A stretch of DNA of 41,545 bases from contig JBEEGX010000011.1 in NCBI GenBank assembly GCA_041167105.1, positions 1 through 41,545 of the forward strand. The letters run 5' to 3'. Every line of letters begins with the position of its first letter. Position 1 is the stretch's first letter. Origin of the DNA: Verrucomicrobiota bacterium. Its GTDB lineage: Bacteria; Verrucomicrobiota; Verrucomicrobiia; Chthoniobacterales; UBA10450. The position numbers were made by a program, and so were the translations under genes. The notes beneath the pieces were generated by a model. It did not search any database. It had not been told where the DNA came from and saw only the letters and a program-made list of their open reading frames with translations. Shown one piece after another: positions 2,930 through 36,871 of this stretch.

Positions 2930-5276
2930 TATGATAGGCGAGCCAGGCGTTCCAGGCGCGTTCCCAATTTTCTTTCGCGGCCCAGGATTGCGCTTCGAGA
3001 TAATGAAAATACTTCGGCGCATTCGGCCGGTCGCTGAAATGGCGCGCGGTGACGAGCGCGTCATCGGTGCGGCCAAGCTGGCGTTGCGCAAGATACAGCG
3101 CGTAGCCGACGGCGTAATTATCAGGGTTCGTCAGGTAACGTTGCTGGAGCTGGTCGAGCGGCGCGTTGTTGCTTTCGCGCGGCAGGGCGACGACGTCGCC
3201 AAAACGTTGCGCGAGATCGTAGGCGGCGTGGAAATCATTTTTGCTCGCGTAAAATTTTGCCATGCCGAACCAGGCATAGCTGAGCCAATCGCGGTGATTG
3301 TCGATCTTGCGCGCGAGCTCATCGAGATTTCCGCGCTCGGACCAAAGCGAAAAGAGGGCGAGCTTCTGCGGCTCGGTGAATTTTTCCAGGCTCGGATCTT
3401 TGCTCAACAATTTCCCGAGCGTGGCATCGAAGTCTTTTCCGTTCACGCGGCTGAGATACGCGAGGACGAGCTCGGGCTCGCCGAGTCCAATCTCCTCGAG
3501 CGTGCGCGCGAGCGGCGGACTGTGCATCAAGGCGCCGCTCAACATGTTCGCGTAAACATCGCCACGCGAAGCGCCGGCGCGACGCAGCGCCTCGTGCCAG
3601 GCGGTGGCCGCGAGTGTGGGCTCAATCGGCAACCACACGTTACCTTCGAGGAACGGCAATTCGTATCCATTCGGCTCGAGGAAACGGGCGCGGCGAAAAT
3701 CATCGAGCGCATCGCTCCATTTTTTCGCGCCGGCTTCGGCCATGGCGCGCGAGAAATAAAGTTGCCAATCGAGCGGCGACCACGGAATGGCTGCGCTCGT
3801 TAGGCGAATTGCTTCGCTGAAATCCTGGCCGCGCGTTTCCATTTGCGCGAGCTCTTTGGCGCTGGCAACGCCAACTGCTCCCGGCAACAACATTTTCGAG
3901 CGCGTCGCGATGACCCACGACATTCCGCTAATGACGAGAACGAGGCCGACGATTCGAAACAGAACTGAAACGCTCATGCTCGGCCGCAAATTGAGCGGCC
4001 GATGCAGCGACAGGCCGAGCAGAAACAAACCGGCAAAGGCAGTGCCGACGCGGTGCGCGCTCACGTCGATGAGTCCGTGCGCGGCAAAGATCAAAGCCGC
4101 GATGAGGGCGGCGAGACGAAAACGTTGATTGGTCCCCTCCTGCAACGGCAGCACTCGCCTGACAAGAAGCGCGGCGCCGATCACGATGAGTAGAACCGCC
4201 GGCCAGCCCATTTCCGACCAAAGCCAGAGCCAGTCGCTTTCCGGATGCAAGGCGCGCGTGTTGCCGACCGATTCCGTGCGAAACAAGGCGAAGACGAAAT
4301 CGAAATTACCGAGGCCGATGCCGCACCACGGCGAAGCACGGATGAGATCGAAGGTGTCGTGAAAGATCTTCCAGCGAAAATCGGCGGACAAGCCGCTGCC
4401 AGGCAATCCGCCAAAGTTGAAGCGCTCGAGGGTTTCGCCGCCTAACAACAGCACCGCCGTCATGAGCACAAGCAGGAATGAAACTGCGAGCGCGATGCGT
4501 TCGCTGGTGCGTTGACGCACGAGCACGGCGAAAATCCAAATGACGCTGCCACCGACGAGAATGCCGACGCCCGCGCGCGACCAGTTGAGGAGAATGGCTA
4601 CCACTAAGATCGACAATGCGATTATCCAGACGAACCAGCGTTTCCGGCCGCGACGAATATCGTCCTGACCACAAGCGAGCAGAACAATCGAGGTGATGCC
4701 TAACAAATCCGCGGTTTGGTTTTTGTTCGGGAACGGACCGAAGCCGCGCGCGTTCGTCCAAAGCGCGAAGGACCCGTGGCCGAGGTAGAGGAGAATGGAG
4801 ATGACGGCGAGAACAACCACGCCGACGACGAAGAGCCGCAATTGCGACCGCACCGCGCGAAGGTCGATCTCGTGCGTGGCCACGAGGTACAACCAGCTCA
4901 ACGCGCCAATCAGACTAACGAACGCACCGGCGGTGATCCACGGCTGCGGCGAAACCGTTCCCGGAAGCGCGATGTTGAAATCGTCCACTACTGCGGCGCG
5001 CCACTGCGGCCACGAAAACCAATGCGCCGGCAGGAACCCCATGAGCGCAACCGCCAGGAACAAAACGAAAACGATATTCGTCGTTAGGCCGAGCGAGAGC
5101 CGCGGCGGCCGCGCCAGCAGATACAAGCCCAGCAGTGTGAGCACGACGCCTTCGGCCCATTTCGTCGTCGCGCCGCCAAGAAAGCACGCCAGCACCGGCA
5201 AAAGCGGCAGAAAAATATTCGCGAGCCCGCTGGGGGCGGAACGGCGCTCGGGCTGTGCGGTGGGCTCGGACATCAC
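2910..5276 (-). CDS. O-antigen ligase/polymerase-like (Wzy_C-type) membrane protein fused to a C-terminal TPR-like helical domain
   Basis: 788-aa ORF. The N-terminal ~470 aa are polytopic, with a large loop (RTESVGNTRALHPESDWLWLWSEMGWP) typical of the O-antigen ligase/Wzy_C family. The C-terminal ~300 aa are soluble and helical-repeat-like (AYDLAQRFGD.., YALYLAQRQLGRTDDALV). Confidence 0.7.
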   Translation of the reverse strand: MMSEPTAQPERRSAPSGLANIFLPLLPVLACFLGGATTKWAEGVVLTLLGLYLLARPPRLSLGLTTNIVFVLFLAVALMGFLPAHWFSWPQWRAAVVDDFNIALPGTVSPQPWITAGAFVSLIGALSWLYLVATHEIDLRAVRSQLRLFVVGVVVLAVISILLYLGHGSFALWTNARGFGPFPNKNQTADLLGITSIVLLACGQDDIRRGRKRWFVWIIALSILVVAILLNWSRAGVGILVGGSVIWIFAVLVRQRTSERIALAVSFLLVLMTAVLLLGGETLERFNFGGLPGSGLSADFRWKIFHDTFDLIRASPWCGIGLGNFDFVFALFRTESVGNTRALHPESDWLWLWSEMGWPAVLLIVIGAALLVRRVLPLQEGTNQRFRLAALIAALIFAAHGLIDVSAHRVGTAFAGLFLLGLSLHRPLNLRPSMSVSVLFRIVGLVLVISGMSWVIATRSKMLLPGAVGVASAKELAQMETRGQDFSEAIRLTSAAIPWSPLDWQLYFSRAMAEAGAKKWSDALDDFRRARFLEPNGYELPFLEGNVWLPIEPTLAATAWHEALRRAGASRGDVYANMLSGALMHSPPLARTLEEIGLGEPELVLAYLSRVNGKDFDATLGKLLSKDPSLEKFTEPQKLALFSLWSERGNLDELARKIDNHRDWLSYAWFGMAKFYASKNDFHAAYDLAQRFGDVVALPRESNNAPLDQLQQRYLTNPDNYAVGYALYLAQRQLGRTDDALVTARHFSDRPNAPKYFHYLEAQSWAAKENWERAWNAWLAYHNAATKR

Positions 5277-6820: not shown

Positions 6821-8085
6821 TTGGATGGACACGCGTCGTCGTGTCCCAAACTTTTCAGCTTCGCAAAAAAATCGGCTAACAATTTGCCGCGATCGTAACG
6901 CGCAACATAAGCGCGCCCATTTTTGCCCCACTCGCGCAGTGATTGCCTGCCCGCCGTAGCCTTGGCGGAGGCGGGTCGATCTTGCGCAAGATCGCGAAAG
7001 GTCTGCGCAAGTTTCGCGGCATCACCTGGCAATACATTCGTGCCGCAATTTCCATCGCGCACCGCTTTCGCCAGCGCGCTCTCTTCATCCGCCACCGTCA
7101 CCACCGGACAGCCGTGCGCCAGCGTCATCAAAATCTTGCTCGGAAAAAACGCATTGCCCGAGCCGCTTTGCTGCGTGATCAACGAAATGTCCGCGTCCAC
7201 CAGCAGCTCTTTGTATCCACGGTCCGATTGCAGAGGCAACATCGTCACGTTTTGCAGATGTCGATCTTGCATGGATCGCTCGAGCGACGCTCGCGCCGCG
7301 CCGTCACCGCAAATGACGATGCGAATATTCGGCTGGTCGCGCAGATGCTCAGCGGCATCGATCAAAATTTTGAGGCCCTGTTTCACTCCGAGATTCCCAG
7401 AGTAAACCGCGAGAAAATCAGCGTCGGTCATGCGATGACGCGCGCGAAAGTTTCCACGCGCCGGCAATTCATCGGGAACGACCACGCCGTCGGGAAACAA
7501 AAGAATTTTTTTATCCGGCACACCTTTACGCCGGAACGCTTCGAGCATTTCATTGCTCAATCCGCCGACCATGGTCGCGTGTTTGTAAGCGAACGCTTCC
7601 AGCCAATACAGCGCGCGTGTGAACCAACCGGCGCGCACCATGCCGAGACCGATGGCGGCGTCCGGTTGTAAATCTTTCACCAGAAAAACAATTGGCGCGC
7701 GTTTGAAGAGCGTGACAAACCACGCAGCCATGCCTAACAACAGCGGCGGCGAGACGACGACGTAAACATCGGGACGCGGCAACGTCAGTGCGCGCAGCGT
7801 TGAAGTCAGGACAAACGTCGCTTCGTGAATGATGCGCTTCCAAGCCGAGACACGCGCGGGCACGAAATGCCAGCAGCGATAGACCCACACGTCGTTGATC
7901 ACATCCGTGCGAAATAGACGATGTCGATCTTGCGCGGATTTTTTCCACATCGGGTAATACGCGAACGTCGTCACCATCTCGACATCGACATCTTTTTTGG
8001 CGAGAAACTCGCAGAGCGCGACGTTATGCGGCGCGATGCCCGCCACTTCGGGCGCGTAATTGATTCCCCAAACGACAACGCGCAT
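6814..8085 (-). CDS. Glycosyltransferase family 4 (WcaI-like)
   Basis: 423 aa. The N-terminus MRVVVWGINYAPEVAGIAPHN resembles WcaI-type GT4 enzymes and the C-terminal half is a GT-B Rossmann domain. The 3' end overlaps the convergent gene by 7 nt. Confidence 0.85.
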   Translation of the reverse strand: MRVVVWGINYAPEVAGIAPHNVALCEFLAKKDVDVEMVTTFAYYPMWKKSAQDRHRLFRTDVINDVWVYRCWHFVPARVSAWKRIIHEATFVLTSTLRALTLPRPDVYVVVSPPLLLGMAAWFVTLFKRAPIVFLVKDLQPDAAIGLGMVRAGWFTRALYWLEAFAYKHATMVGGLSNEMLEAFRRKGVPDKKILLFPDGVVVPDELPARGNFRARHRMTDADFLAVYSGNLGVKQGLKILIDAAEHLRDQPNIRIVICGDGAARASLERSMQDRHLQNVTMLPLQSDRGYKELLVDADISLITQQSGSGNAFFPSKILMTLAHGCPVVTVADEESALAKAVRDGNCGTNVLPGDAAKLAQTFRDLAQDRPASAKATAGRQSLREWGKNGRAYVARYDRGKLLADFFAKLKSLGHDDACPSNQ

Positions 8086-9490: not shown

Positions 9491-10120
9491 TCAGTAAAAA
9501 TACACGTCTGTGCTGGTCACGCCAAAGCGCGCCGGGCCCACGCTCTCGAAAATTTCGAAGCGCTGGGCGCGGTTCGCATTTCGCAACTGCTGATAACGCC
9601 ACGAATCGTCCACGATGATAATGCCGCCAGGCGCAACCTGCTCTTCCGCGGCGCGAAAACAAATCGGCCGCGCGTTCGGCGTCCATTCATTGCCGTCGAC
9701 CACGATGACATGGGCGCGATTCGGTCGCACTGCGCTCACATAAGTCGATCGTTCGAATTCCTGCTCGTTCGTGAATTTCACCGGCACGTGGCGAAGATCG
9801 ACATGTGCGATGCCGCGGCTGCTGAGTTTACCGGCGACGATGTCGCGCCAGCGCGCGTTATCTTCGATGCTTACTACTGAGCGACAGCGCCGCGCGAAAA
9901 ATAAGGTCGAGCCGCCGCTGCCAAATTCGAAGACGTTCATCTCCGGTCGCAAATAGTTTTCGAGAAAATCGATCGCGGAGTAAGCGAACCACGGCAGCTC
10001 CAGCTCGACCGGTTCGCGGCGACCGATGACATTGTGCGCGAAGTAACGGCCGATGTTGCCCGGGTGCTCGAGCAAATCGCAGGTCAACTTAACCACGCGC
10101 TCCGAATTGGTCAGGTTCAT
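9491..10120 (-). CDS. Putative class I SAM-dependent methyltransferase
   Basis: 209 aa. VFEFGSGGSTLFFA resembles SAM-binding motif I and IIIVDD resembles the post-II acidic strand. Embedded in the operon by an ATGA overlap at 10117-10120. Confidence 0.55.
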   Translation of the reverse strand: MNLTNSERVVKLTCDLLEHPGNIGRYFAHNVIGRREPVELELPWFAYSAIDFLENYLRPEMNVFEFGSGGSTLFFARRCRSVVSIEDNARWRDIVAGKLSSRGIAHVDLRHVPVKFTNEQEFERSTYVSAVRPNRAHVIVVDGNEWTPNARPICFRAAEEQVAPGGIIIVDDSWRYQQLRNANRAQRFEIFESVGPARFGVTSTDVYFY

Positions 10121-22250: not shown

Positions 22251-23053
22251 AATTTGTGGCGAACAGGATTAACGTAATGACGCAGGACCAATTCAGGACC
22301 TGCATGTCGATCTTGCCAGATGGCTTGATCGTCGAGTTGAAGCACGTACTTGGCCGGGTCGAGCGGGCGCGCGCCGTTTCGATGCATGGCGAGATGCGTC
22401 AGCGTTTGGTTGGTATGAAAAGCGGGCGCGCCTCCTAATTGCAAAAAGCGCTCGAGCGCGAGCGACCAATCGAGTTTCTGAAAAAGCAAAAGCACGCCGG
22501 TGTTAACCGGATCGCGCTTTTCCGATTCGTCGCGGAGCAAATGCTCGTCGCCGGCGAATTGGCAATCGGCCAGATAATACGCGGGCGCGTCGCGCTGCTC
22601 GATCTGCCTAACGAGATCGGACGCGCCGGGGAAGAAGAGAACGTCAGCGTCGACATATAAGGCATGTTCGAGCGACATGATGAGCGCGAGTTGTTTGCCG
22701 GTGTAATGATTCGCGAGATAATTGCGCAGCTTTTCGGGAACATTCGGCGGCGGTAAAACCGATGAGCGAACTTTCACGCTAAGATCGACATCTTCCAATA
22801 ACCGGATGCTGCGCGGTGAATGTGAGCCATCGGAAACGACCGTGAAACTTTTCGGGCGGCCAGCGTGGCGAAGAAAGGAGCGAATGGATGCGATTTGCTC
22901 CGGTAACATCTCTTCGTTCGAATAGGCGAAGACGTCGATGTCGATCTTGCGCGGTGCTTCGATGCCTTGAGAGACGATTCGCGGAAGCGCAGCGCGGTAG
23001 CGATTGCGAATCGCGCGTCCGCGCCAGATGGCAAAGTGATAGGCTAGATTCAT
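22229..23053 (-). CDS. Putative nucleotide-diphospho-sugar transferase (GT-A/GT8-like, DxD)
   Basis: The ORF track starts at 23260 and overlaps the flippase gene. The Met at 23053 (MNLAYHF) gives an ATGA overlap with the stop at 23050. Contains YVDADVLFF (DxD-like) and PVNTGVLLL, reminiscent of GT8-type enzymes. Weak assignment. Confidence 0.5.
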   Translation of the reverse strand: MNLAYHFAIWRGRAIRNRYRAALPRIVSQGIEAPRKIDIDVFAYSNEEMLPEQIASIRSFLRHAGRPKSFTVVSDGSHSPRSIRLLEDVDLSVKVRSSVLPPPNVPEKLRNYLANHYTGKQLALIMSLEHALYVDADVLFFPGASDLVRQIEQRDAPAYYLADCQFAGDEHLLRDESEKRDPVNTGVLLLFQKLDWSLALERFLQLGGAPAFHTNQTLTHLAMHRNGARPLDPAKYVLQLDDQAIWQDRHAGPELVLRHYVNPVRHKFWTSLKQ

Positions 23054-24366
23054 TGTTCGGCCGCGAAACGGTGTAATCCGCGCCAACTCATCGCGATGTT
23101 GAGCAAAAGATTTGGGACGGCGGAAAGAAGATTGAAGTTGAGCACGCCGGCGACGCTGGAGAAATCGGTGAACGGAATGAGTGCGAGCTGCGTGCCGAGG
23201 GTGAGCGGAATGTAAAGCCACGCGCCGTGGATCCACGCCTTCGACGCGTTCAACGCCCAAAAGGTGCCGGTGAGCGCGGCTATGACGGAGCCGGCGACCA
23301 TGAGGAACAACTCGCGATGGAGATGCGCGTATTTGTGGCCGAGCACGAACAGGAATTGGTTCGGCAGAAGCACCGCGCCGGCGACGACGGCGAGACTAAA
23401 CGCCGCGACGCCGCCGACGATGGCGAGGAAAAGCCAGCGAAGTTTGCGTGCGCTTTGGCAACGCGCGAATTCGGGAACGAAGACGTTGGTGAGGAGATTG
23501 CTAAGGACGGCGAAGATCATGGCGAGACGGCCGAGCGCGCCGACTTCGGCGACGGAGCTGACTTGGCGAGCGAAGAAGCTGATGAGGAAAATTGTGATTT
23601 GCCCCTGGAAACAATAGAAGACGGCGTTGGCGGCGAGATGTTTCGTCAGCCGCATTATTTCTTGTCGATCTTGCAGATTTTCCTGCGCGCCAAGATCGAC
23701 AACTGCATTCACGTAACGACGCAGCATGAGGTACTGCAGAAGAAAAACCGCGCTGGCCACGGCAACGGCGATGCCGGCGTTGAGAATCCAGAAGGCAAAC
23801 GCGACGAAGAGCGCGAGCCTAACGACGGCGCCGGTGAAATCGATGATTTGAATACGAGTGACGTCGGCGCGAAGTCGCGGGACGACACTGAGAACGCCGA
23901 CGGAAAATTGGAGAAGTAATCCGGCGACGACGATTACGGCGAGAATTGCGATGTAAAGAAGAGGCGCGCCGTTTTTCCAAAGCATCGAGCACATGATGGG
24001 CGTGACGATGAGGATGGCAGCGGCGCCAAGTTTTCGACGCACGTGCAGACCGGTAACAATGAGTTCGCCGAAACGATGTCGATCTTGCCAGACGCGGCCG
24101 CCGATGGAGACGAGACCGACGGAAATGCCGATGTCGGCGAGGAGATTGATCGTCGCCTGCATCGAATTCGCGATGGTGAAATAGGCGTACTCGGGTTGCG
24201 ACATCCAGCGGATGAGCAAAATGCCGCTGAGAAATCCGATGACCTGGACGACGGCCTGGACGGCGGCGAAGTTACCGATGATGCGGGCACGATAGAGCGC
24301 GCGCCTAACGAGAGGCGTCGAGGTCTCGCTAAGACCGGGAAGTGAGATCGGACCGAAGAAGCTCAT
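23050..24366 (-). CDS. wzx: Polysaccharide/oligosaccharide flippase (Wzx-like, MOP superfamily)
   Basis: 438 aa with about 12 hydrophobic segments. The N-terminal region RARIIGNFAAVQAVVQVIGFLSGILLIRWMSQPEYAYFTIANSM is typical of polysaccharide biosynthesis (Wzx) proteins, and it sits in an EPS context. Confidence 0.75.
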   Translation of the reverse strand: MSFFGPISLPGLSETSTPLVRRALYRARIIGNFAAVQAVVQVIGFLSGILLIRWMSQPEYAYFTIANSMQATINLLADIGISVGLVSIGGRVWQDRHRFGELIVTGLHVRRKLGAAAILIVTPIMCSMLWKNGAPLLYIAILAVIVVAGLLLQFSVGVLSVVPRLRADVTRIQIIDFTGAVVRLALFVAFAFWILNAGIAVAVASAVFLLQYLMLRRYVNAVVDLGAQENLQDRQEIMRLTKHLAANAVFYCFQGQITIFLISFFARQVSSVAEVGALGRLAMIFAVLSNLLTNVFVPEFARCQSARKLRWLFLAIVGGVAAFSLAVVAGAVLLPNQFLFVLGHKYAHLHRELFLMVAGSVIAALTGTFWALNASKAWIHGAWLYIPLTLGTQLALIPFTDFSSVAGVLNFNLLSAVPNLLLNIAMSWRGLHRFAAEQ

Positions 24367-28952: not shown

Positions 28953-30164
28953 ATGATTCGCTTTTCTCCTAAAGCTTTCATCTTCGCGCTTGTCTCCGGC
29001 ATTGCCACCATGTCGATCTTCGCCGGATCAATGCCGAATGGTGACGGCCTCGCCAACCAGGCGAAAAATCTCGCGCGCATGAACTGCGGAGCTCAAATCG
29101 AATGCATCACTCCGGATGGCCGCGTTGTGCGTGTCACTCCCGCCGCGCCCGAGAACAGCGAAGCCGCCGCACTCATCATGGACGACGACACCGTGAGCTG
29201 CTCATTGGCGGAAGGCGAAACCAATTTCGTCATCGCATTGCCAAATCCGGCGCTGCTCGATCGCTTCACCTTTTTAAATGAAAACGCTGCCGCGCACGGC
29301 GAGCTCAGCATCGCCGTATCGAATTATCGTTTGCCGGCCAAGAGTGCGAAGTGGACGCCGGTCGAAGGCACCGTCGCTTTCACGAACAAGCGCACGTTTG
29401 ATCTCTCATTACTTGGCGTCGAAGCGAAATTCGTTCGCCTCACCTTCCGCGTGCAAAAAGAGGGACGCATCGCCGCGCTCGGTCTCTACGGCCAGCAATC
29501 GCTCGATCAATTCGGCGCCCGCCAGGGTCACGTCATGCAAGTGTCCAACGCCATCGACGGCAATCGCCCGGCGGATCGCGTCAATTTCAACTTCGCCAAC
29601 ACCTATGCCCGCGCGCATGTTCGCTTCGTTAGCTCCGGCGTCGTCGTCGACTCCGGCAAAATGATCGATGACGACCCGATCACCGCCTACACCTTTTCGT
29701 TCTCAGACCCGCATCCGACGGTTGTGGTCGAGCTTTCCGCTGTGCAACGACTTCATCGCGTCAGCGCCATTTATGATATGCACGCAGGTCGGCTTGATGT
29801 TTATGCATTGAACAAACTCACCGGCGATGTTGAAAATTTCGAGGGACTCAAGCCGATCGCTTCCGTGGTCGATCACGCCGGCGAAGGAAAAGCTTCGGTC
29901 GATTTCAATCCGCAAGGCGCTCGCTATATCGCGCTGCGCTGGATGCCGGAGAACTCTCGCGTGCAACATGAAAGTTTCCGCATCGCCGAGATCAATGCTT
30001 TCGGAAATGTGCCGCTTGCATTGCTCGACATGAATATGCCGCCGCAGCTTTTCGCCAACAGCAACGGATTTTCCACCGGACGTCCGGGTGACGGTGCGCC
30101 CGATTTGAGCAACACGCTCGGAACGCTCGCGGTTCCTCCGACGCTCCCGCCTGTAAGTCCATAA
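28953..30164 (+). CDS. Secreted protein with two discoidin/F5-8 type C-like (galactose-binding-like) domains
   Basis: 403 aa with signal peptide MIRFSPKAFIFALVSGIATMSIFAGS. Two segments end with the pattern typical of discoidin domains (FVRLTFRVQKEGRIAALGLYG and ARYIALRWMPENSRVQHESFRIAEINAFG). Moderate confidence in the family. Confidence 0.55.
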   Translation: MIRFSPKAFIFALVSGIATMSIFAGSMPNGDGLANQAKNLARMNCGAQIECITPDGRVVRVTPAAPENSEAAALIMDDDTVSCSLAEGETNFVIALPNPALLDRFTFLNENAAAHGELSIAVSNYRLPAKSAKWTPVEGTVAFTNKRTFDLSLLGVEAKFVRLTFRVQKEGRIAALGLYGQQSLDQFGARQGHVMQVSNAIDGNRPADRVNFNFANTYARAHVRFVSSGVVVDSGKMIDDDPITAYTFSFSDPHPTVVVELSAVQRLHRVSAIYDMHAGRLDVYALNKLTGDVENFEGLKPIASVVDHAGEGKASVDFNPQGARYIALRWMPENSRVQHESFRIAEINAFGNVPLALLDMNMPPQLFANSNGFSTGRPGDGAPDLSNTLGTLAVPPTLPPVSP

Positions 30165-30193
30165 CGGGCGCTTCGCGTTTGGCCGGACGAGTC

Positions 30194-30223
30194 GTTGTCG
30201 ATCTTAGTAGTTGTCGATCTTAG
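30194..30223 (+). repeat. Tandem direct pair of the dispersed motif: GTTGTCGATCTTAG-TA-GTTGTCGATCTTAG (16-bp period)
   Basis: Read directly from sequence. Two identical 14-mers at 30194-30207 and 30210-30223, in the spacer upstream of the hybrid kinase gene. Confidence 0.95.
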
Positions 30224-30415
30224 CGAAAACCGTTCTGATTTTTGAGACGCGTTCGCGAATCAATGCACGCACCGCGTCCATAAATTCTGCTTCGCCGCGA
30301 AATTTTCGCCACTGCTGTCGGTACCGCAACGAAGTCGCCAACGCGTTCGCGTACGCAAATTTACAGGCATGGAAGTAGCTCCCTTTTCTTGTCGCTTCAC
30401 CTTGGCTCGTCACTC

Positions 30416-32074
30416 ATGGGATCTACTACCGCTAATGACTCGTTAGGCATTGGCGCGACTTCCCAAGCGCGCGACCAAAAGCAGACACCACCACATGAAC
30501 ACTCCATCTACCAAATCAAAGACGGCGCCGACGCTCAAAACCATGCGGCGCAAAGTCAGGATTATCCTTCACTCCTTGCCCGGGCTACGAATGATGCAGT
30601 TCGGGATCTGGATTTAACGACCAACCGACTCGTCTGGCGGCAAGGCCTGCACGATCTCCTCGGTTACGATGCAAGATCGACATCGACCGACCTCGCGTTC
30701 TGGACTGAGCGCGTTCACCCCGAAGATCGTCTCCGCGTTGTCGGCTCGATTTGCGCCGCGCTCGATGGAACCGCCGAAAATTGGACCGGCGAATATCGAT
30801 TCCAACACGCCGATGGTTCCTACCTCCATCTGCTCGAACGCGCCGCCATTGTGCGCGACGAACAACGACGCGCCGTGCGCCTGCTCGGTTCGCTCATGGA
30901 TATCACCGAGCACAAACAACTGCACGACCAGCTGTGTCGCTCGCAAAAAATGGAAGCCTTCGGCCAGCTCGCCGGCGGCGCCGCCCACGACTTCAGTAAT
31001 TATCTCACGACCATTCTCGGCTACAGCGATCTCCTACTCGCTGAAACCGCGTCGAAAAATACCATCACCAATCACGTCACCGAAATCCGCAATGCGGCGG
31101 TGCGCGCGGCGTATCTCACCGCGCAATTGCTCGCCTTCAGTCGCCAGCAAAATCTTGAAGCGCGCGTCCTGGAAATAAATTCCTTCATTCACGGACTGGA
31201 CGGGTCCGTTCTGCGTTTGTTAGGCGAAAACGTCACCGTCACTTGCGATTTGCACCACGATAAAAACGGCGCGTTCATCAAAATCGATCCGGGTCAGCTC
31301 ACTCAAGTCGTCTTGAATCTTGCGCTCAATGCGCGCGATGCCATGCCCGAAGGCGGCGCGCTTGTCATCAAAACTTCTGTGGCCGATTTCACGCAAGATC
31401 GACAATTGGAAGATCGACATCTGCGCGCCAGCGGCGATCCGATTTCCGCCGGCGAATACGTTGTCATCACCATCCGCGATAACGGCACGGGCATGACCGA
31501 CGCAGTGAAAGCGCATTTGTTTCAGCCGTTCTTCACTACCAAACCCGAAGGCGGTCTTGGTCTCTCCGCCTCCTACGGAATCGTCAGGCAATGCGGCGGC
31601 CGGATTGTGGTCGAGAGCGATTTGGGTAAAGGCACGCAGGTCGATGTTTATCTGCCCCGCGTCGGTCCGCCGGCCTATCGCCGCATCAACAACAAGAAAA
31701 TGCCCACCGGCACCGAGACCATTCTCGTGCTCGAAGACGATGTCAGCGTTCGCCACATTTCCGTCCGTGTTCTGCGTTCGTTAGGCTATGACGTCATCGA
31801 AGCGGGCAACGGCGATGACGCGCAACGCATGATCACGCAGCGCTCGAATGACGATGTCGATCTTGTCTTGAGCGACATTGTCATGCCGAACATGAGCGGC
31901 CGGCACTTTGCCGAGTGGCTGCGAAAGACAAGCCCGCGCATTAAAATCGTTCTCGTCTCCGGTTATCTCGACGAATCGGACGAAGCCAACGCCGAGCCCG
32001 GAATGTTTTTCCTGCCGAAACCGTTCGATCCGGAACAACTCGCGCAAAGCATTCGTCACGCGCTCGACACGTAG
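30416..32074 (+). CDS. Hybrid sensor histidine kinase / response regulator (PAS - HisKA - HATPase_c - REC)
   Basis: PAS-like region (WRQGLHDLLGYD...EDRLRVVGSICAALDGTAENWTGEYRFQHADGSY). H-box FGQLAGGAAHDFSNYLTTILGYSDLL. ATPase N/G boxes (LNLALNARDAMPEGG, RDNGTGM, GGLGLS). C-terminal receiver domain ILVLEDDVSVRHI...DLVLSDIVMPNMSG...VSGY. The ORF track starts at TTG 30389; I use ATG 30416. Confidence 0.85.
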   Translation: MGSTTANDSLGIGATSQARDQKQTPPHEHSIYQIKDGADAQNHAAQSQDYPSLLARATNDAVRDLDLTTNRLVWRQGLHDLLGYDARSTSTDLAFWTERVHPEDRLRVVGSICAALDGTAENWTGEYRFQHADGSYLHLLERAAIVRDEQRRAVRLLGSLMDITEHKQLHDQLCRSQKMEAFGQLAGGAAHDFSNYLTTILGYSDLLLAETASKNTITNHVTEIRNAAVRAAYLTAQLLAFSRQQNLEARVLEINSFIHGLDGSVLRLLGENVTVTCDLHHDKNGAFIKIDPGQLTQVVLNLALNARDAMPEGGALVIKTSVADFTQDRQLEDRHLRASGDPISAGEYVVITIRDNGTGMTDAVKAHLFQPFFTTKPEGGLGLSASYGIVRQCGGRIVVESDLGKGTQVDVYLPRVGPPAYRRINNKKMPTGTETILVLEDDVSVRHISVRVLRSLGYDVIEAGNGDDAQRMITQRSNDDVDLVLSDIVMPNMSGRHFAEWLRKTSPRIKIVLVSGYLDESDEANAEPGMFFLPKPFDPEQLAQSIRHALDT

Positions 32075-32102
32075 TTGTCGATCTTGTTCGTTGTCGATCT
32101 TG
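32074..32102 (+). repeat. Tandem direct pair of the dispersed motif: GTTGTCGATCTTG-TTC-GTTGTCGATCTTG (16-bp period)
   Basis: Read directly from sequence. Two identical 13-mers at 32074-32086 and 32090-32102. The first base is the G of the kinase TAG stop, and the pair ends 18 nt before the ilvA start. Confidence 0.95.
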
Positions 32103-32119
32103 CGCCAAGTTGACGGCGC

Positions 32120-33331
32120 GTGATTTCGTTTAAAGACATCGAAGCCGCGCGCGAACGCATCAAGGGCGCGGTCTGTTACTCGCCTTGCCCGCCGTCCGTC
32201 GCGCTAAGCGAGCTCACCGGCATGCAGATTTTCTGCAAGCAGGAGCAACTTCAGCATACCGGCAGTTTTAAGGAGCGCGGCGCGCGCAACGCGCTCATGC
32301 AATTGCCTAACGAGCAGCAAAAGCGGGGCGTTATCGCCGCTTCCGCCGGAAATCACGCGCAGGCCCTCGCATATCAGGGCGGCTTGTTAGGCATTCAAGC
32401 GACCGTGGTCATGCCGAAGTTCGCGCCGTTGATGAAGATCAACAATTGCCAGAAGCTCGGCGCCGATGTGGTGTTGCACGGAAATGATTTCGGCGAAGCG
32501 CGTGCGCGTGCGCATGAGATCGGCCAAGAGAAAGGTCTCGCCTACATCAATGGCTACGATGATCCCGCCATCATCGCGGGACAGGGTTCGTTAGGCATCG
32601 AGATTCTCGAACAAGTTCCCGATGTCGATCTTATCGTGGTCCCGGTGGGCGGCGCGGGATTGATCGGCGGAGTCGCGCTCGCGGTGAAAACATTGCGACC
32701 GCAAACAAAAGTCATCGCGGTCGAAGCCGAGAACGTCGCCAGTTTCGCCGCCGCGCTCGAAGCGCACCAACCGACGCGCATCGCCGCCCAACCGACGCTC
32801 GCTGACGGTCTCGCCATTCCGCAGGTCGGCGCAAACGGTTTCGAGCTCGCACGCGAACATGTCGATCAAACGGTCATCGTGACTGAAGAACAAATCGCCA
32901 TCTCGATCTTGCGCATTGTCGAGTTGGAGAAAGCTGTCGTGGAAGGCGCAGCCGCGACATCGCTGGCCGCCTGTTTGTCGGGACAACTGAATGAATTCGC
33001 CGGCCAGCGCGCAGTGTTGCTCTTCACCGGCGGCAATATCGACCCGAATGTTTTGAGTCGCGTGATCGAGCGCGGACTCGTCGCCGACGGCCGACTTTGT
33101 CGATTCACTGCCGTCATTAGCGATCGACCCGGCGGTCTCGGGGACCTTGCCACGCAAATCGCCGCGACCGGCGCGAGCATCAAACAAGTCGTGCACGATC
33201 GCGCCTTCGGCAGCGCGGATGTTTCACACGTGCACGTGCGTTGCACGGTCGAGACGCGCAATCACGAACATCTCGCGCAATTGCGCGCGCATCTGAAGAG
33301 CCACGGCGTCGAGACGTACGATTCCAAATAG
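32120..33331 (+). CDS. ilvA: Threonine ammonia-lyase (threonine dehydratase), short form with one C-terminal ACT-like domain
   Basis: 403 aa. PLP-lysine motif HTGSFKERGARNAL, glycine loop VVPVGGAGLIGGVA, and a C-terminal regulatory domain (CRFTAVISDRPGGLGDLATQIA). GTG start. Confidence 0.9.
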   Translation: MISFKDIEAARERIKGAVCYSPCPPSVALSELTGMQIFCKQEQLQHTGSFKERGARNALMQLPNEQQKRGVIAASAGNHAQALAYQGGLLGIQATVVMPKFAPLMKINNCQKLGADVVLHGNDFGEARARAHEIGQEKGLAYINGYDDPAIIAGQGSLGIEILEQVPDVDLIVVPVGGAGLIGGVALAVKTLRPQTKVIAVEAENVASFAAALEAHQPTRIAAQPTLADGLAIPQVGANGFELAREHVDQTVIVTEEQIAISILRIVELEKAVVEGAAATSLAACLSGQLNEFAGQRAVLLFTGGNIDPNVLSRVIERGLVADGRLCRFTAVISDRPGGLGDLATQIAATGASIKQVVHDRAFGSADVSHVHVRCTVETRNHEHLAQLRAHLKSHGVETYDSK

Positions 33332-33365: not shown

Positions 33366-36230
33366 ATGCATGCGCGACAGGAATACAAGATCGACCTCGA
33401 CTCCTTTGCGCGGCGTCATATCGGCCCTAACGAATCTGAAGTTGGCGCAATGTTGCGCGAACTCGATTTCGACAATCTCGATGCACTGATCGACGCGACC
33501 GTTCCGAAAAATATCCGCTTAGATCGACAACTCGATTTGCCGGAAGCGAAATCGGAAGCACAGGCGCTGTCGGAGCTGCGCACGATTTCGAAGAAGAACA
33601 AAGTCGCGAAGAATTTTATCGGCGCTGGTTACTCCGATTCGATCACGCCGCCGGTGATTCAGCGAAACATTCTCGAGAACCCCGGTTGGTATACTGCCTA
33701 CACACCGTATCAGGCCGAGCTCGCGCAAGGCCGGCTCGAAGCGCTGCTCAATTTCCAAACCATGATCACCGATCTCACAGCGATGGAGATCGCGAATGCG
33801 TCGATGCTCGATGAAGCCACTTCCGCAGCGGAGGCGATGGCGCTCTGTCATGCGGCGGTGCCGGGCCGGAAAACATTTTTGGTTTCGGACGATTGCCATC
33901 CGCAAACGATCGAGGTCGTGACTACGCGCGCGAAGCCGCTCGGCATTCAGATTAAGATCGACCATCACGTTAACTTCGATTTTGACGAGGATGTTTTTGG
34001 CGCGCTCCTGCAATTTCCCGCTACTGATGGTGAGGTTCACGATTACTCCGCGCTCGTTAGGCCGGCGCACGAGGCCGGCGCGCTCGTGGTGGTGGCGGCC
34101 GATATTCTCGCGCTCACTCTCTTCAAACCGCCGGGCGAGTTCGATGTCGATGTTGTCGTCGGCAGCACGCAGCGCTTCGGGGTTCCGTTAGGCTACGGCG
34201 GGCCACACGCGGGATTTTTTGCCACGCGCGACAAATACAAACGTCACATGCCCGGCCGGCTCGTCGGCGTTTCGCATGATGCTGAAGGTCGCCCGGGCTA
34301 TCGACTCGCATTGCAAACGCGCGAGCAACATATCCGTCGCGACAAAGCCACCAGTAATATTTGCACCGCGCAAGTTTTGCTCGCGGTCATCGCCTCGATG
34401 TATGCGGTCTATCACGGACCGCGCGGCTTGCGCGCTATCGCCGAACGCCTGGATGAAATGACGCGGCGCCTTTGCGTTTCTCTCGAGGACGTTGGCTTCG
34501 GTGTCGCGCACGAATTTTTCTTCGACACGCTTCATGTCGCGCTCGGCCATCAGGGAAACGCGGAGCACTTTCTTGCGCGAGCCGCGTCTGTCGGGATGAA
34601 TTTGCGCAAACTCGGCGAGAACACCGTCGGCATCTCGATCGACGAAACGACGACCGAAGCAGACCTCGCGCACCTGTGCGAAGTGTTTGAGGCGAAGATC
34701 GACAGTTCGTCCGATTACGAATCTTTCCGCGATCCGCCGTCGCTCCTGCGCACTTCCGATTTCCTAACGCACCCGATCTTCAATACGCATCACACCGAGA
34801 CCGAAATGCTGCGTTACATCAAGCGGCTCGAGTCGCGCGATTTGTCGCTCTGTCATTCCATGATTCCGCTCGGCTCATGCACGATGAAACTGAACGCGAC
34901 CGCGGAAATGTTTCCGCTTTCGTGGCCGGAATTTTCGAAGCTACATCCGTTTGCGCCTAACGAACAGGCGACCGGTTACATCGACATGTGCAAGCAGCTG
35001 GAAGATTGGCTCGCGGAAATCACCGGCTTCGCTGCCGTATCGTTGCAGCCGAATGCGGGATCGCAAGGTGAATACGCGGGCTTGCTCGCGATCCGCGAAT
35101 ATCACAATTCGCGCGGTGAACCGCATCGCAACGTTTGTCTCATTCCGAATTCGGCGCACGGAACGAATCCGGCCAGCGCGGTCATGGCCGGTCTGCGCGT
35201 CGTCGCGGTCGCGACGTTGAAAGATGGAGATGTCGATCTTGCCGATCTTCGCGCGAAAGCCGACGCGCACGCGCGCGATCTCGCCGCCATCATGATCACA
35301 TATCCGAGCACGCACGGCGTGTTCGAGCCGACCATTCGCGAAATCTGCGAAATCGTGCACGCGCACGGCGGCCAGGTTTATCTCGACGGCGCGAACATGA
35401 ACGCACAGGTCGGACTCTGCCGTCCCGGCGATTACGGCGCCGATGTTTGCCATTTGAATTTGCACAAGACGTTTTGCATTCCGCACGGCGGCGGCGGACC
35501 CGGCGTCGGACCGATCGGTGTCGCGCCACATCTCGTTCCGTTTTTGCCGGCGGCGGCGACGTTGAATGACGATGTCGATCTTACCAACCGCGTCGGGCCA
35601 GTCGCGCAAGCGCCCTATGGCAGCGCGAGCATTCTCACGATCTCGTGGATGTATATCCGCATGATGGGACCGATCGGCCTAACGGATGCGAGCAAGATCG
35701 CGATTCTGAATGCGAACTACATCGCGAAACGACTCGACCCGCATTTTCCGGTCTTGTTCAAAGGCAAACGCGGCCTCGTCGCGCATGAGTGCATTGTCGA
35801 TCTTCGCCAATTTAAAAGTATCGGCATCGAAGTCGAAGACGTGGCGAAACGTTTGATGGATTACGGATTTCACGCGCCGACAGTTTCGTTTCCGGTTGCC
35901 GGCACGATGATGATCGAGCCGACCGAGAGCGAATCGAAAGATGAGCTCGACCGTTTTTGCGATGCGATGATTTCCATTCGAAAGGAAATCGAAGCCGTCG
36001 CGAACGGCACGCAAGATCGACATAACAATTTGCTCAAAAACGCGCCGCACACCACGCGACAGATCGCCGCGGAAAAATGGGAACATCCCTACACGCGCGA
36101 GCAAGCGGCGTTTCCCGCGCCGTGGACACGCGAGCACAAATTCTGGCCGAGCGTCGCGCGCATCGACAACGTCTACGGCGATCGGAATTTATTCTGTTCC
36201 TGTCCGCCGGTCGAAGGCTTCGAAGACTGA
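33366..36230 (+). CDS. gcvP: Glycine dehydrogenase (decarboxylating), glycine cleavage system P protein, single-chain form
   Basis: 954 aa, collinear with single-chain GcvP. Conserved strings include [115 protein letters not shown] and [13 protein letters not shown]. Confidence 0.95.
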
Positions 36231-36871
36231 CAAGCGGCGGCGGCGAGCAGCTCGCGGACTTCGTCGTCCGTCGTCTGCGCAAAGTTTTCATAGAACTGGC
36301 CGACGGCGTGAAAATATTCCGGCGCGGTCGCGCAGATTGTTTCGTCGGCGAGTGATTCGAGTTCGCGGCATGTTTCGGGCGCGCCGACTGGGACAGCCAC
36401 AATAATTTTCGCGGCGCCTTCCTGCCGCAACGCCGTCACGGCCGCACGCATAGTCGCGCCGGTGGCGAGGCCGTCATCGACCAGAATGACAGTGCGGCCG
36501 CGCACGTCGAGCGGCGGACGATCGTCGCGATAAAGTTTTTCGCGGCGCGCGACCTCGGCTTGTTCGCGGACAGTCACGGCATCAATGATCTCCATCGCGT
36601 TCGGCAACGCACGGACGACGTCGTCGTTCAAAACGCGCACGCCGCCCGAAGCGATGGCGCCGGCGGCGAGTTCTTCGAAACCGGGCACGCCGAGTTTGCG
36701 AACGATGAAGACGTCGAGCGGCGCGCGGAGGCGTTTCGCAATTTCGTAGGCGACGGGAACACCGCCGCGCGGCAGGCCGAGCACGATGACGTCGTCGCGC
36801 CCGAAATAGTTATTGTCGATCTTGCCGGCTAAAATTTCGCCGGCTTCATGTCGATCTTGAAAGATGCGCAT
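36173..36871 (-). CDS. Phosphoribosyltransferase-family protein
   Basis: 232 aa. N-terminus [15 protein letters not shown]...[16 protein letters not shown] and PRPP-binding loop [18 protein letters not shown]. The 3' end overlaps the gcvP 3' end by 58 nt (convergent). Confidence 0.8.

Follow-up and report, generated by a model that had tools for sequence, protein, structure and literature searches.

The 41,545-nt contig JBEEGX010000011.1 of a Verrucomicrobiota bacterium (assembly GCA_041167105.1; Chthoniobacterales, UBA10450), analysed over its full length and hereafter called the window, carries two direct repeats of the same 10-nt word, one upstream and one downstream of a hybrid histidine kinase gene. 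Do these pairs serve the gene that they flank, or do they belong to something larger than this locus? An earlier note, made from the sequence alone, had seen in them either tandem sites for cooperative protein binding or mere parking sites for an abundant word. The best overall explanation, to which we give a probability of about 0.5, is that the window pairs are local cases of a discrete, lineage-wide doublet state of a genome-wide word. The doublets are arranged head-to-tail, hold two copies at most, with 15-16 bp from centre to centre of the copies, lie where they cost little and are tied to no particular gene. As far as our literature searches went, this variant of the genome-wide-word phenomenon has not been described.

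A maintained word and its head-to-tail doublets

The first pair (doublet 1, GTTGTCGATCTTAG-TA-GTTGTCGATCTTAG, positions 30194..30223, + strand) is located in the 251-nt spacer that separates a gene resembling the F5/8 type C family from the kinase ATG. It starts 30 nt past the end of the upstream gene (30164), and its own end falls 193 nt short of the ATG. The second pair (doublet 2, GTTGTCGATCTTG-TTC-GTTGTCGATCTTG, 32074..32102, + strand) lies between the kinase stop and the GTG of an ilvA-like gene. It begins on the G of the kinase TAG, occupies 28 of the 45 nt between the stop and the GTG, and leaves 17 nt between its own end and the GTG at 32120. Both pairs have a 16-bp period, and their positions, strand and period are those that the earlier note had reported. 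The third pair described there is also confirmed: two copies of AAGATCGACA, the reverse complement of the word, at 31395 and 31410 (31395..31419, - strand; 15-bp period) are read in frame in the kinase as QDRQLEDRH, and are present as well in the closest relative, locus L105 (9276/9291). With 70 words placed at random, at least two same-strand pairs at exactly 16 bp are expected with P~0.0014, which argues that the pairs are non-random. In total, the 41.5-kb window holds four close direct pairs, and about 9% of its words are in doublets. An independent Joint Genome Institute (JGI) assembly, L001, carries doublet 1 in identical form; over 18,117 nt that include both doublets it shows a single difference from the window, and the doublets therefore are not an assembly artefact.

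Two other arrangements of the word were observed. A direct pair of 35-bp period at 36814 and 36849, conserved in L105 (15176/15211), had been listed as intergenic and is in fact located inside a minus-strand phosphoribosyltransferase gene (36173-36871). An inverted pair, 23663(+)/23692(-), with its copies 29 bp apart, lies inside a 438-aa gene without Pfam match (23050-24366, -) and is kept in three lineages, those of the window, L105 (1552/1581) and L174 (2138/2167).

The core 10-mer TGTCGATCTT is by far the commonest 10-mer of the window, with 70 copies in 41.5 kb where about zero are expected, 32 on the + strand and 38 on the - strand. The 12-mer GTTGTCGATCTT occurs 11 times against 0.01 expected, and a logo built from 581 single copies defines the extended word as (R)(A/T)-TGTCGATCTT-(G/A)(C), with no long-range signal in the flanks. 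Perfect copies (70) outnumber one-mismatch variants (22). Genes hold 64 of the 70 window copies, in both orientations and in several frames (KID, VDL, SI and others); hence TGTCGATCTT is a DNA word and not a peptide motif. In 8-kb blocks, the numbers on the two strands agree with a 50:50 binomial (chi2 29.7, df 30, p=0.48), and the choice of strand is unrelated to GC skew or to the strand of the gene. Since this choice is that of a fair coin, a polar signal of the Chi or KOPS type is ruled out. Equal use of the strands, several reading frames, either orientation to transcription and presence inside essential operons together show that the word is read at the level of DNA and not of protein or RNA. 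A site for restriction or methylation was considered and rejected: GATC and TCGA occur 309 and 454 times against 154 expected, so that they are not avoided, and a methylase site of 4-6 bp fails to account for a 10-12-mer.

Two samples were used to follow the word beyond the window. For the first, one genome of each species was scanned for pairs of the word separated by 0-30 nt. The matches listed came mostly from Verrucomicrobiota metagenome-assembled genomes (MAGs) labelled Chthoniobacterales or Spartobacteria, and the density of the word in those loci is 1-2.5 per kb. The second sample consists of 80 soil-metagenome loci fetched by IlvA homology (72-90% identity). Here the density drops with distance from the window: 1.68 per kb in the window, 1.84 in L105, 0.71 in L107 and 0.1-0.6 in most others. 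L105 is 84% identical to the window at the nucleotide level over 19 kb, and 31 of 32 words are perfect in it, against 24% of random 10-mers (P~2e-18). In L107, at 74% identity, 11 of 24 words are kept against 8% of random 10-mers (P~1e-6), and the lineage of the window and L105 has gained words that L107 does not have. This conservation indicates that the word is under strong constraint and is selectively maintained in the soil Chthoniobacterales/Spartobacteria lineage.

Outside Verrucomicrobia, the same 10-mer was seen in regular arrays with 66-bp spacing and matches of 42-43 nt (L065, L074, L046, L050, L054), and in Mesorhizobium-type loci as pairs at periods 30 and 33. Such arrays and pairs probably have nothing to do with the Verrucomicrobia word and reflect coding or array repeats. 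A phage origin was rejected, as only 3 doublet matches were obtained among 2.9 million viral contigs, with a low density of the word in each.

The spacing of the doublets was measured in 38 Verrucomicrobiota loci of the scan, in which periods 10-40 were all equally capturable. Counts in this paragraph and the next refer to the matches listed, unless another sample is named. Among the 46 direct pairs with periods of 10-40, 20 have period 15 and 11 have period 16 (P~2e-26). Each of the other periods is represented 0-3 times, with none at 10-14 and none at 19-26, whereas matches from other phyla peak at 30 and 33. Period 16 is intergenic in 12 of 13 cases, and period 15 is found 11 times in coding and 10 times in intergenic sequence; 12 doublets are in coding sequence altogether. 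Hence period 15, the only common option that stays in frame, is the one used in coding sequence, and spacers use 15-16. More than 35 doublets include no triplet. Inverted pairs are as frequent as chance would have it: 12 lie within 60 bp, and a hand estimate from word density predicts about 13. In the IlvA-fetched loci, direct pairs within 100 bp have only periods 15 (one), 16 (four) and 35 (one); the four at period 16 count as a single event because they occupy one orthologous region. By a hand estimate from the fraction of blocks with two pairs, there is about one close direct pair per 8 kb.

Intergenic doublets typically fill spacers of 23-60 bp between co-directional genes and overlap the gene ends in fixed registers: a stop followed by 1 nt and TGTCGATCTT (11 cases), T|AAGATCGACA with TAA as the stop (11 cases), or AAGATCGAC|ATG, in which the doublet supplies the start (9 cases). 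The copy survey that the earlier note had proposed thus reveals a strong preference both for direct pairs of 15/16 bp and for places abutting stop or start codons. Flanking genes identified with Pfam include ftsA-ftsZ, rpsJ-rplC, membrane fusion protein (MFP)-acrB (twice), macB-ABC ATPase, gdhA and the region downstream of rpoC. Orientation to transcription is mixed, with AAGATCGACA in the sense strand 13 times and opposite 4 times; both window pairs belong to the minority. Because short spacers of unrelated core operons hold them, the doublets are neither terminators nor a regulon. At the orthologous MFP-AcrB junction, where AcrB is 88% identical, L023 has period 15 with spacer AGCTA and L061 has period 16 with spacer GGCAGT. 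The doublet is retained in the two species while its spacer changes.

Age of the window doublets and features of the locus

The earlier note had stressed that the two intergenic pairs bracket the kinase gene. Comparison of relatives does not support a meaningful bracket, as doublet 2 is old and doublet 1 young and lineage-specific. L105, L107, L111 and L122 (IlvA 78-90% identical) carry doublet 2 at the orthologous place with neither copy altered, L108, L136 and L137 have versions with one mismatch, and about 24 relatives in which the kinase precedes ilvA show degenerate remnants. Doublet 1 is a single word in L105, with a 15-nt gap exactly at the second copy of the window, and L107 has no word at this place. 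The single copy and the gap in the closest relative are the reason for calling doublet 1 young. With an old pair downstream and a young one upstream, the bracketing appears to be coincidental, and we infer that the doublets do not regulate the kinase or ilvA.

Doublet 2 belongs to a conserved ilvA-upstream element together with the block CGCCAAGTTGACGGCGC (32103..32119, + strand), which lies between the doublet and the GTG and was aligned in 24 relatives. The consensus of the element is TGTCGATCTTGTCGATTGTCGATCTTGCGCCnAnATTGnCGGCGC-GTG, and the 16-bp period of the doublet is built from nested 9+7-nt partial copies of TTGTCGAT. Six base pairs can be predicted in the block after the doublet; the 24 relatives show no compensatory change and no covariation. 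Its conservation is thus one of sequence and not of structure, and an RNA structure for the ilvA-upstream block was rejected. In relatives with another gene before ilvA, the spacer is 4-6 nt long and contains no word. Such an arrangement is seen in a sister clade (L109, L110, L112, L128, L130 and about 30 other IlvA loci), so that synteny upstream of ilvA has changed within the family. The C-terminus encoded by the sister-clade upstream gene, GLxYVSCSPFRIPIARLAAAQAAL, may, by eye, be that of a pyruvate phosphate dikinase or a phosphoenolpyruvate-utilising enzyme.

How new doublets arise can be partly traced. The flanks of doublet 1 match at 5 of 6 positions in duplication register, and perfect 15-bp x2 duplications are found in L036 and L043. 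A duplication origin was therefore accepted for some doublets, including doublet 1, and rejected for all of them. The absence of a duplication register in most doublets argues against simple slippage. Footprints of mobile-element excision, that is target duplications of 15-16 bp, were also considered as a source, and no element flanked in this way was seen.

A small inserted element provides a different view of the word. Related GC-rich hairpins of 29-31 nt (CCTGCCCGCCGTAGCCTTGGCGGAGGCGGG and variants) are located precisely inside the word, in the form ATTG-insert-TCGATCTTGCGC, and removal of the insert restores a perfect word. Three independent places were found: inside a glycosyltransferase gene of the window (6946-6975, context 6942-6987), in the first copy of the ilvA-upstream doublet of L174 (~9920-9975) and in the second copy of that of L149 (~4815-4870). 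Inserts of the L149 type occur at the same site in L118, L127, L131, L133, L139, L140, L143-145, L148 and L171. Looking more widely for hairpins inserted before TCGATCTT brought up only the one case in the window. These sequences suggest that the hairpin may be a small mobile element that targets the word. Directly after the glycosyltransferase insert, two half-words overlap in GATCTTGCGCAAGATC (6976-6995) to give a perfect 16-bp palindrome.

A second, unrelated word, TCGTTAGGC/GCCTAACGA, accompanies the first. Its 25 window copies are all coding, on both strands and in several frames (for example at 30440, 31778, 32588 and 39302), and its density follows that of TGTCGATCTT, with 0.60 per kb in the window, 0.9 in L105, 0.62 in Centralia_MAG_126 and 0.09 in L107. 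It forms no doublets and keeps no fixed spacing to TGTCGATCTT.

The genes around the doublets are as follows. The upstream gene (28953..30164, + strand) has a weak match to F5/8 type C, a discoidin-like domain (Pfam E=1.6e-4, under the curated cut-off). The kinase (30416..32074, + strand) has 552 aa with PAS_3, HisKA, HATPase_c and Response_reg domains in Pfam, and its ATG start at 30416 agrees with the JGI gene call. The IlvA-like threonine dehydratase (32120..33331, + strand) has PALP and ACT domains and a GTG start that is kept across 80 relatives. GcvP follows at 33366..36230, also from Pfam. The identities that had been proposed for these neighbours hold for the kinase and the IlvA-like protein, with the weak match for the F5/8 type C gene. 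Between doublet 1 and the kinase, GGCATGGAAGTAGCT (30366..30380, + strand; ~36 nt 5' of the ATG and ~145 nt 3' of the doublet) resembles a sigma-54-type -24/-12 promoter, with GG and GC 12 nt apart. At least 10 relatives keep it 5' of the kinase (L105, L107, L108, L115, L125, L106, L123, L174 and L175 among them), and its match to the consensus TGGCAC-N5-TTGC makes it a candidate kinase promoter. JGI also calls a 69-aa open reading frame on the minus strand (30204-30413), which ends as AKIDNY* within doublet 1 and for which no Pfam match is recorded. Its protein is not conserved in L105 and was passed over by a codon-usage caller, and the frame is probably spurious. At the gathering threshold, Rfam gave no match in the window.

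Which explanation fits the doublets

In the reading that we favor, one sequence-specific DNA-binding or DNA-processing protein would recognise the word and cover about 15 bp as its footprint. Two such sites, abutting and occupied head-to-tail, would make up a doublet, in effect a site of double strength. New doublets would come from short tandem duplication of the word with 5-6 flanking bases, as in doublet 1, or from point mutation, and the force that keeps single words intact would then keep them. A distance of 15-16 bp corresponds to about 1.5 helical turns. It would therefore place the two protomers on opposite faces of the DNA, which argues for end-to-end contact or a polar oligomer over a symmetric dimer. 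Cooperative binding by one protein, as the earlier note had imagined, is plausible and is the arrangement we favor. Selection of the doublet as such is supported by the narrow range of spacings, the limit of two copies, the period of 15 that stays in frame inside genes and the MFP-AcrB junction.

Several points weigh against this reading. The main spacing sample, from the matches listed, was ascertained on pairs, and coding and intergenic positions were assigned with our own crude codon-usage gene caller, with a Pfam check at about 10 junctions. About 90% of the words are in coding sequence, with an intergenic enrichment of only ~1.4-2.5-fold. Over all doublets, the flank-register test of duplication origin is not significant (P=0.15). 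Doublet 2 has been retained no better than two independently constrained single words would predict, so that the case for doublet-specific selection comes solely from the spacing distribution. The co-enrichment of TCGTTAGGC in the same lineages is not explained by a single uptake receptor. Known pairs of the DNA uptake sequence (DUS) of Neisseria and of the uptake signal sequence (USS) are inverted repeats in terminators (bioRxiv 10.1101/2025.10.24.684340; PMC3388099), and in Neisseria a directly repeated DUS is about as effective as one copy (PMC3388099). Finally, the reader protein and any role in uptake we infer purely from sequence.

What the reader would do is a separate question. Its likeliest role may be that of a tag of self DNA of the DUS/USS kind, the closest known analogue, serving DNA uptake or recombination. 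We give this the rank of a tentative possibility, kept low because the geometry of the pairs differs, most copies are coding and a second word co-occurs. With similar weight, the site may instead be that of a chromosomal protein with no part in uptake, either a nucleoid-associated or chromosome-organising factor or a site-specific nuclease or recombinase, for which the doublets would be high-affinity sites and whose target the hairpin would share. The same spacing and conservation support this alternative, the hairpin inserted exactly inside the word at three independent places agrees with it, and the second word TCGTTAGGC fits a general DNA-processing system better than one uptake receptor. 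However, TGTCGATCTT lacks the strand skew of polar motifs such as Chi and KOPS, just about 5 copies of the hairpin element were seen, and we know of no nucleoid protein that uses an exact 10-12-mer at one per 600 bp. Overall, we view a chromosomal protein of this type as possible and less than probable.

Parking combined with slippage would dispense with a function for the doublets. The word would be driven or selected genome-wide, and doublets would be the shortest tandem duplications that copy a whole word. They would survive where they are tolerated, in spacers or as in-frame insertions of 15 bp, and would then last because selection acts on each copy separately. The earlier note's idea that the word parks where coding constraint is absent is borne out by the predominantly intergenic position of period 16, with period 15 as the coding form. 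It is insufficient alone, because it leaves the sharp 15/16 spacing and the in-frame coding pairs of period 15 unaccounted for. The 15-nt gap that removes one copy of doublet 1 in L105, the perfect duplications in L036 and L043, and the retention of doublet 2 at the rate of two independent words all speak for slippage. Yet slippage arrays normally vary in copy number, and there is no triplet among the more than 35 doublets of the matches listed; the unit-length difference between the window and L105 is the sole supporting case of this kind. The same matches contain nothing at periods 12-14 and 19-26, although the informative motif is just ~12-13 nt long. The flanks are out of duplication register overall, and the orthologous MFP-AcrB doublets have unrelated spacers of different lengths. 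We consider this explanation rather unlikely.

Local regulation, in contrast, would give the pairs a role at this locus: doublet 2 and the block that follows would be an ilvA promoter or operator, and doublet 1 an upstream activator site for the sigma-54-type kinase promoter. This we judge improbable. In its detailed form, ilvA would give a near-leaderless mRNA from a sigma-70-like promoter whose -35 (TTGTCG) and -10 (nAnATT) elements are separated by 16-17 nt, with the -10 at about 8 nt from the GTG. The ilvA-upstream element, with its invariant columns TTG ... A.TT, is kept in about 24 relatives, including lineages in which the word is rare genome-wide, and doublet 1 lies ~145-185 nt 5' of the conserved GG-N10-GC motif. 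On the other hand, a promoter scan gave no sigma-70-type site in 29900-32400. The spacer of 4-6 nt in relatives with another preceding gene indicates that ilvA needs no promoter of its own, and L105 and L107 retain the sigma-54-like motif while doublet 1 is absent from them as a pair. Identical doublets are found at unrelated operon junctions and in coding sequence (12 coding doublets among the matches listed), beside unrelated flanking genes, and, relative to transcription, most intergenic doublets in these matches have the orientation opposite to that of the window pairs (13 vs 4). A local role at the conserved doublet 2 is possible.

The weakest alternative places the signal in RNA, with the pairs as terminators, attenuators or elements of translation initiation. 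In its favor, the final codons of the kinase can form a weak 6-bp stem (TCGACA/TGTCGA, 32064-32081) with the first copy, ahead of a T-rich stretch, and many doublets abut or overlap start codons. It is nevertheless very improbable. Folds are no better than those of shuffled sequences (z is +1.36 at doublet 1 and -1.67 around ilvA), neither covariation nor an Rfam match was found, both orientations to transcription occur, and rpsJ-rplC and ftsA-ftsZ, two junctions at which one would not expect termination, also contain doublets. That neither intergenic pair is a hairpin terminator, as the earlier note had stated, agrees with these folds (z-scores +1.4 to -1.7) and with the absence of a terminator-like site in 30165-30415. 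As a general explanation, a regulon, a terminator and an RNA-level signal are all excluded by the unrelated core operons and the mixed orientation.

Relation to known words and meaning for the lineage

To our knowledge, hyper-abundant words that are maintained exist in very few bacterial groups (DUS, USS and HIP1), and function is understood for DUS and USS only. The window word resembles the latter two in many respects. They are exact 9-12-mers at about one per 0.6-1 kb on both strands, in coding and non-coding sequence; perfect copies outnumber near-misses, conservation between species exceeds background, density is lineage-specific, and there is a modest enrichment at permissive gene ends (bioRxiv 10.1101/2025.10.24.684340). 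TGTCGATCTT likewise occurs as an exact word at about one per kb on both strands, with dominance of perfect copies and conservation beyond background. The likeness to DUS/USS pairs behind genes that the earlier note had drawn therefore stands for abundance and conservation. It fails for the pairs themselves: the intergenic copies are direct pairs at a fixed 15-16 bp rather than inverted repeats forming terminators, and inverted ones are at chance level. The word also belongs to another phylum and has an unrelated sequence, a second word is co-enriched with it, and ~90% of its copies are in genes, whereas about half of DUES are in terminators. DUS/USS mediate biased uptake with a cognate receptor (ComP, or the predicted ComN). 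A 2025 survey still confined uptake sequences to Neisseriaceae and Pasteurellaceae. Our own searches of the literature found nothing on TGTCGATCTT or TCGTTAGGC (a search with TGTCGATCTT itself gave primer matches only) and nothing relevant on uptake sequences in Verrucomicrobia, Udaeobacter or Chthoniobacterales.

HIP1 (GCGATCGC) is a highly iterated 8-bp palindrome of cyanobacteria whose function is unresolved. Like TGTCGATCTT, it is a hyper-abundant short word with a CGATC core that lies in genes on both strands and is maintained across species. Unlike HIP1, TGTCGATCTT is a non-palindromic 10-12-mer with an orientation, and it forms head-to-tail doublets; it is not its own reverse complement, and only the inner TCGA and GATC are palindromic. 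Chi and KOPS/AIMS are also over-represented oligomers read on DNA by a protein machine, for which tandem copies would raise recognition. They are strongly skewed to one strand relative to replication, whereas TGTCGATCTT is distributed 50:50 without correlation to GC skew and is both longer and far denser.

Iterons and the tandem half-sites of winged-helix response regulators, too, are repeated head-to-tail with a constant spacing of their centres, which implies side-by-side protomers that face the same way. Those sites are limited to one origin or regulon, whereas the doublets of TGTCGATCTT number hundreds per genome by a rough estimate from the matches listed. A period of 15-16 bp is not known from the classic cases, be it the 10-11 bp of OmpR/PhoB or the 17-22 bp of iterons. 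Doublet 1 resembles micro- and minisatellites in being one repeat unit apart from its closest relative. In contrast to these, doublets are capped at two copies among the matches listed, their spacers are not repeated, and tandem-repeat behaviour fails to explain the conservation of both copies over long divergence. With ~90% of the words coding in several frames and no hairpin formed by the word, TGTCGATCTT also differs from REP and MITE elements.

Taken as a whole, the doublets may reveal a new genome-wide recognition system. It would be either a third independent signal for uptake or self-recognition, the first outside Proteobacteria, or the site of a DNA-processing enzyme, with the hairpin element sharing this enzyme site as its target and the doublets revealing the footprint and polarity of the reader. 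We regard this as a possibility to be held with caution. The doublets predict a polar reader with a footprint of ~15 bp and two abutting sites, for which a 30-bp probe could be used in protein pull-out. For annotation, they carry a warning that repeats beside a gene in this lineage are not evidence of regulation of that gene. The word would also serve as a sequence tag to assign metagenomic contigs to the lineage. Chthoniobacterales are among the most abundant soil bacteria and are largely uncultured, and the word would open the question of sequence-biased transformation in this group.

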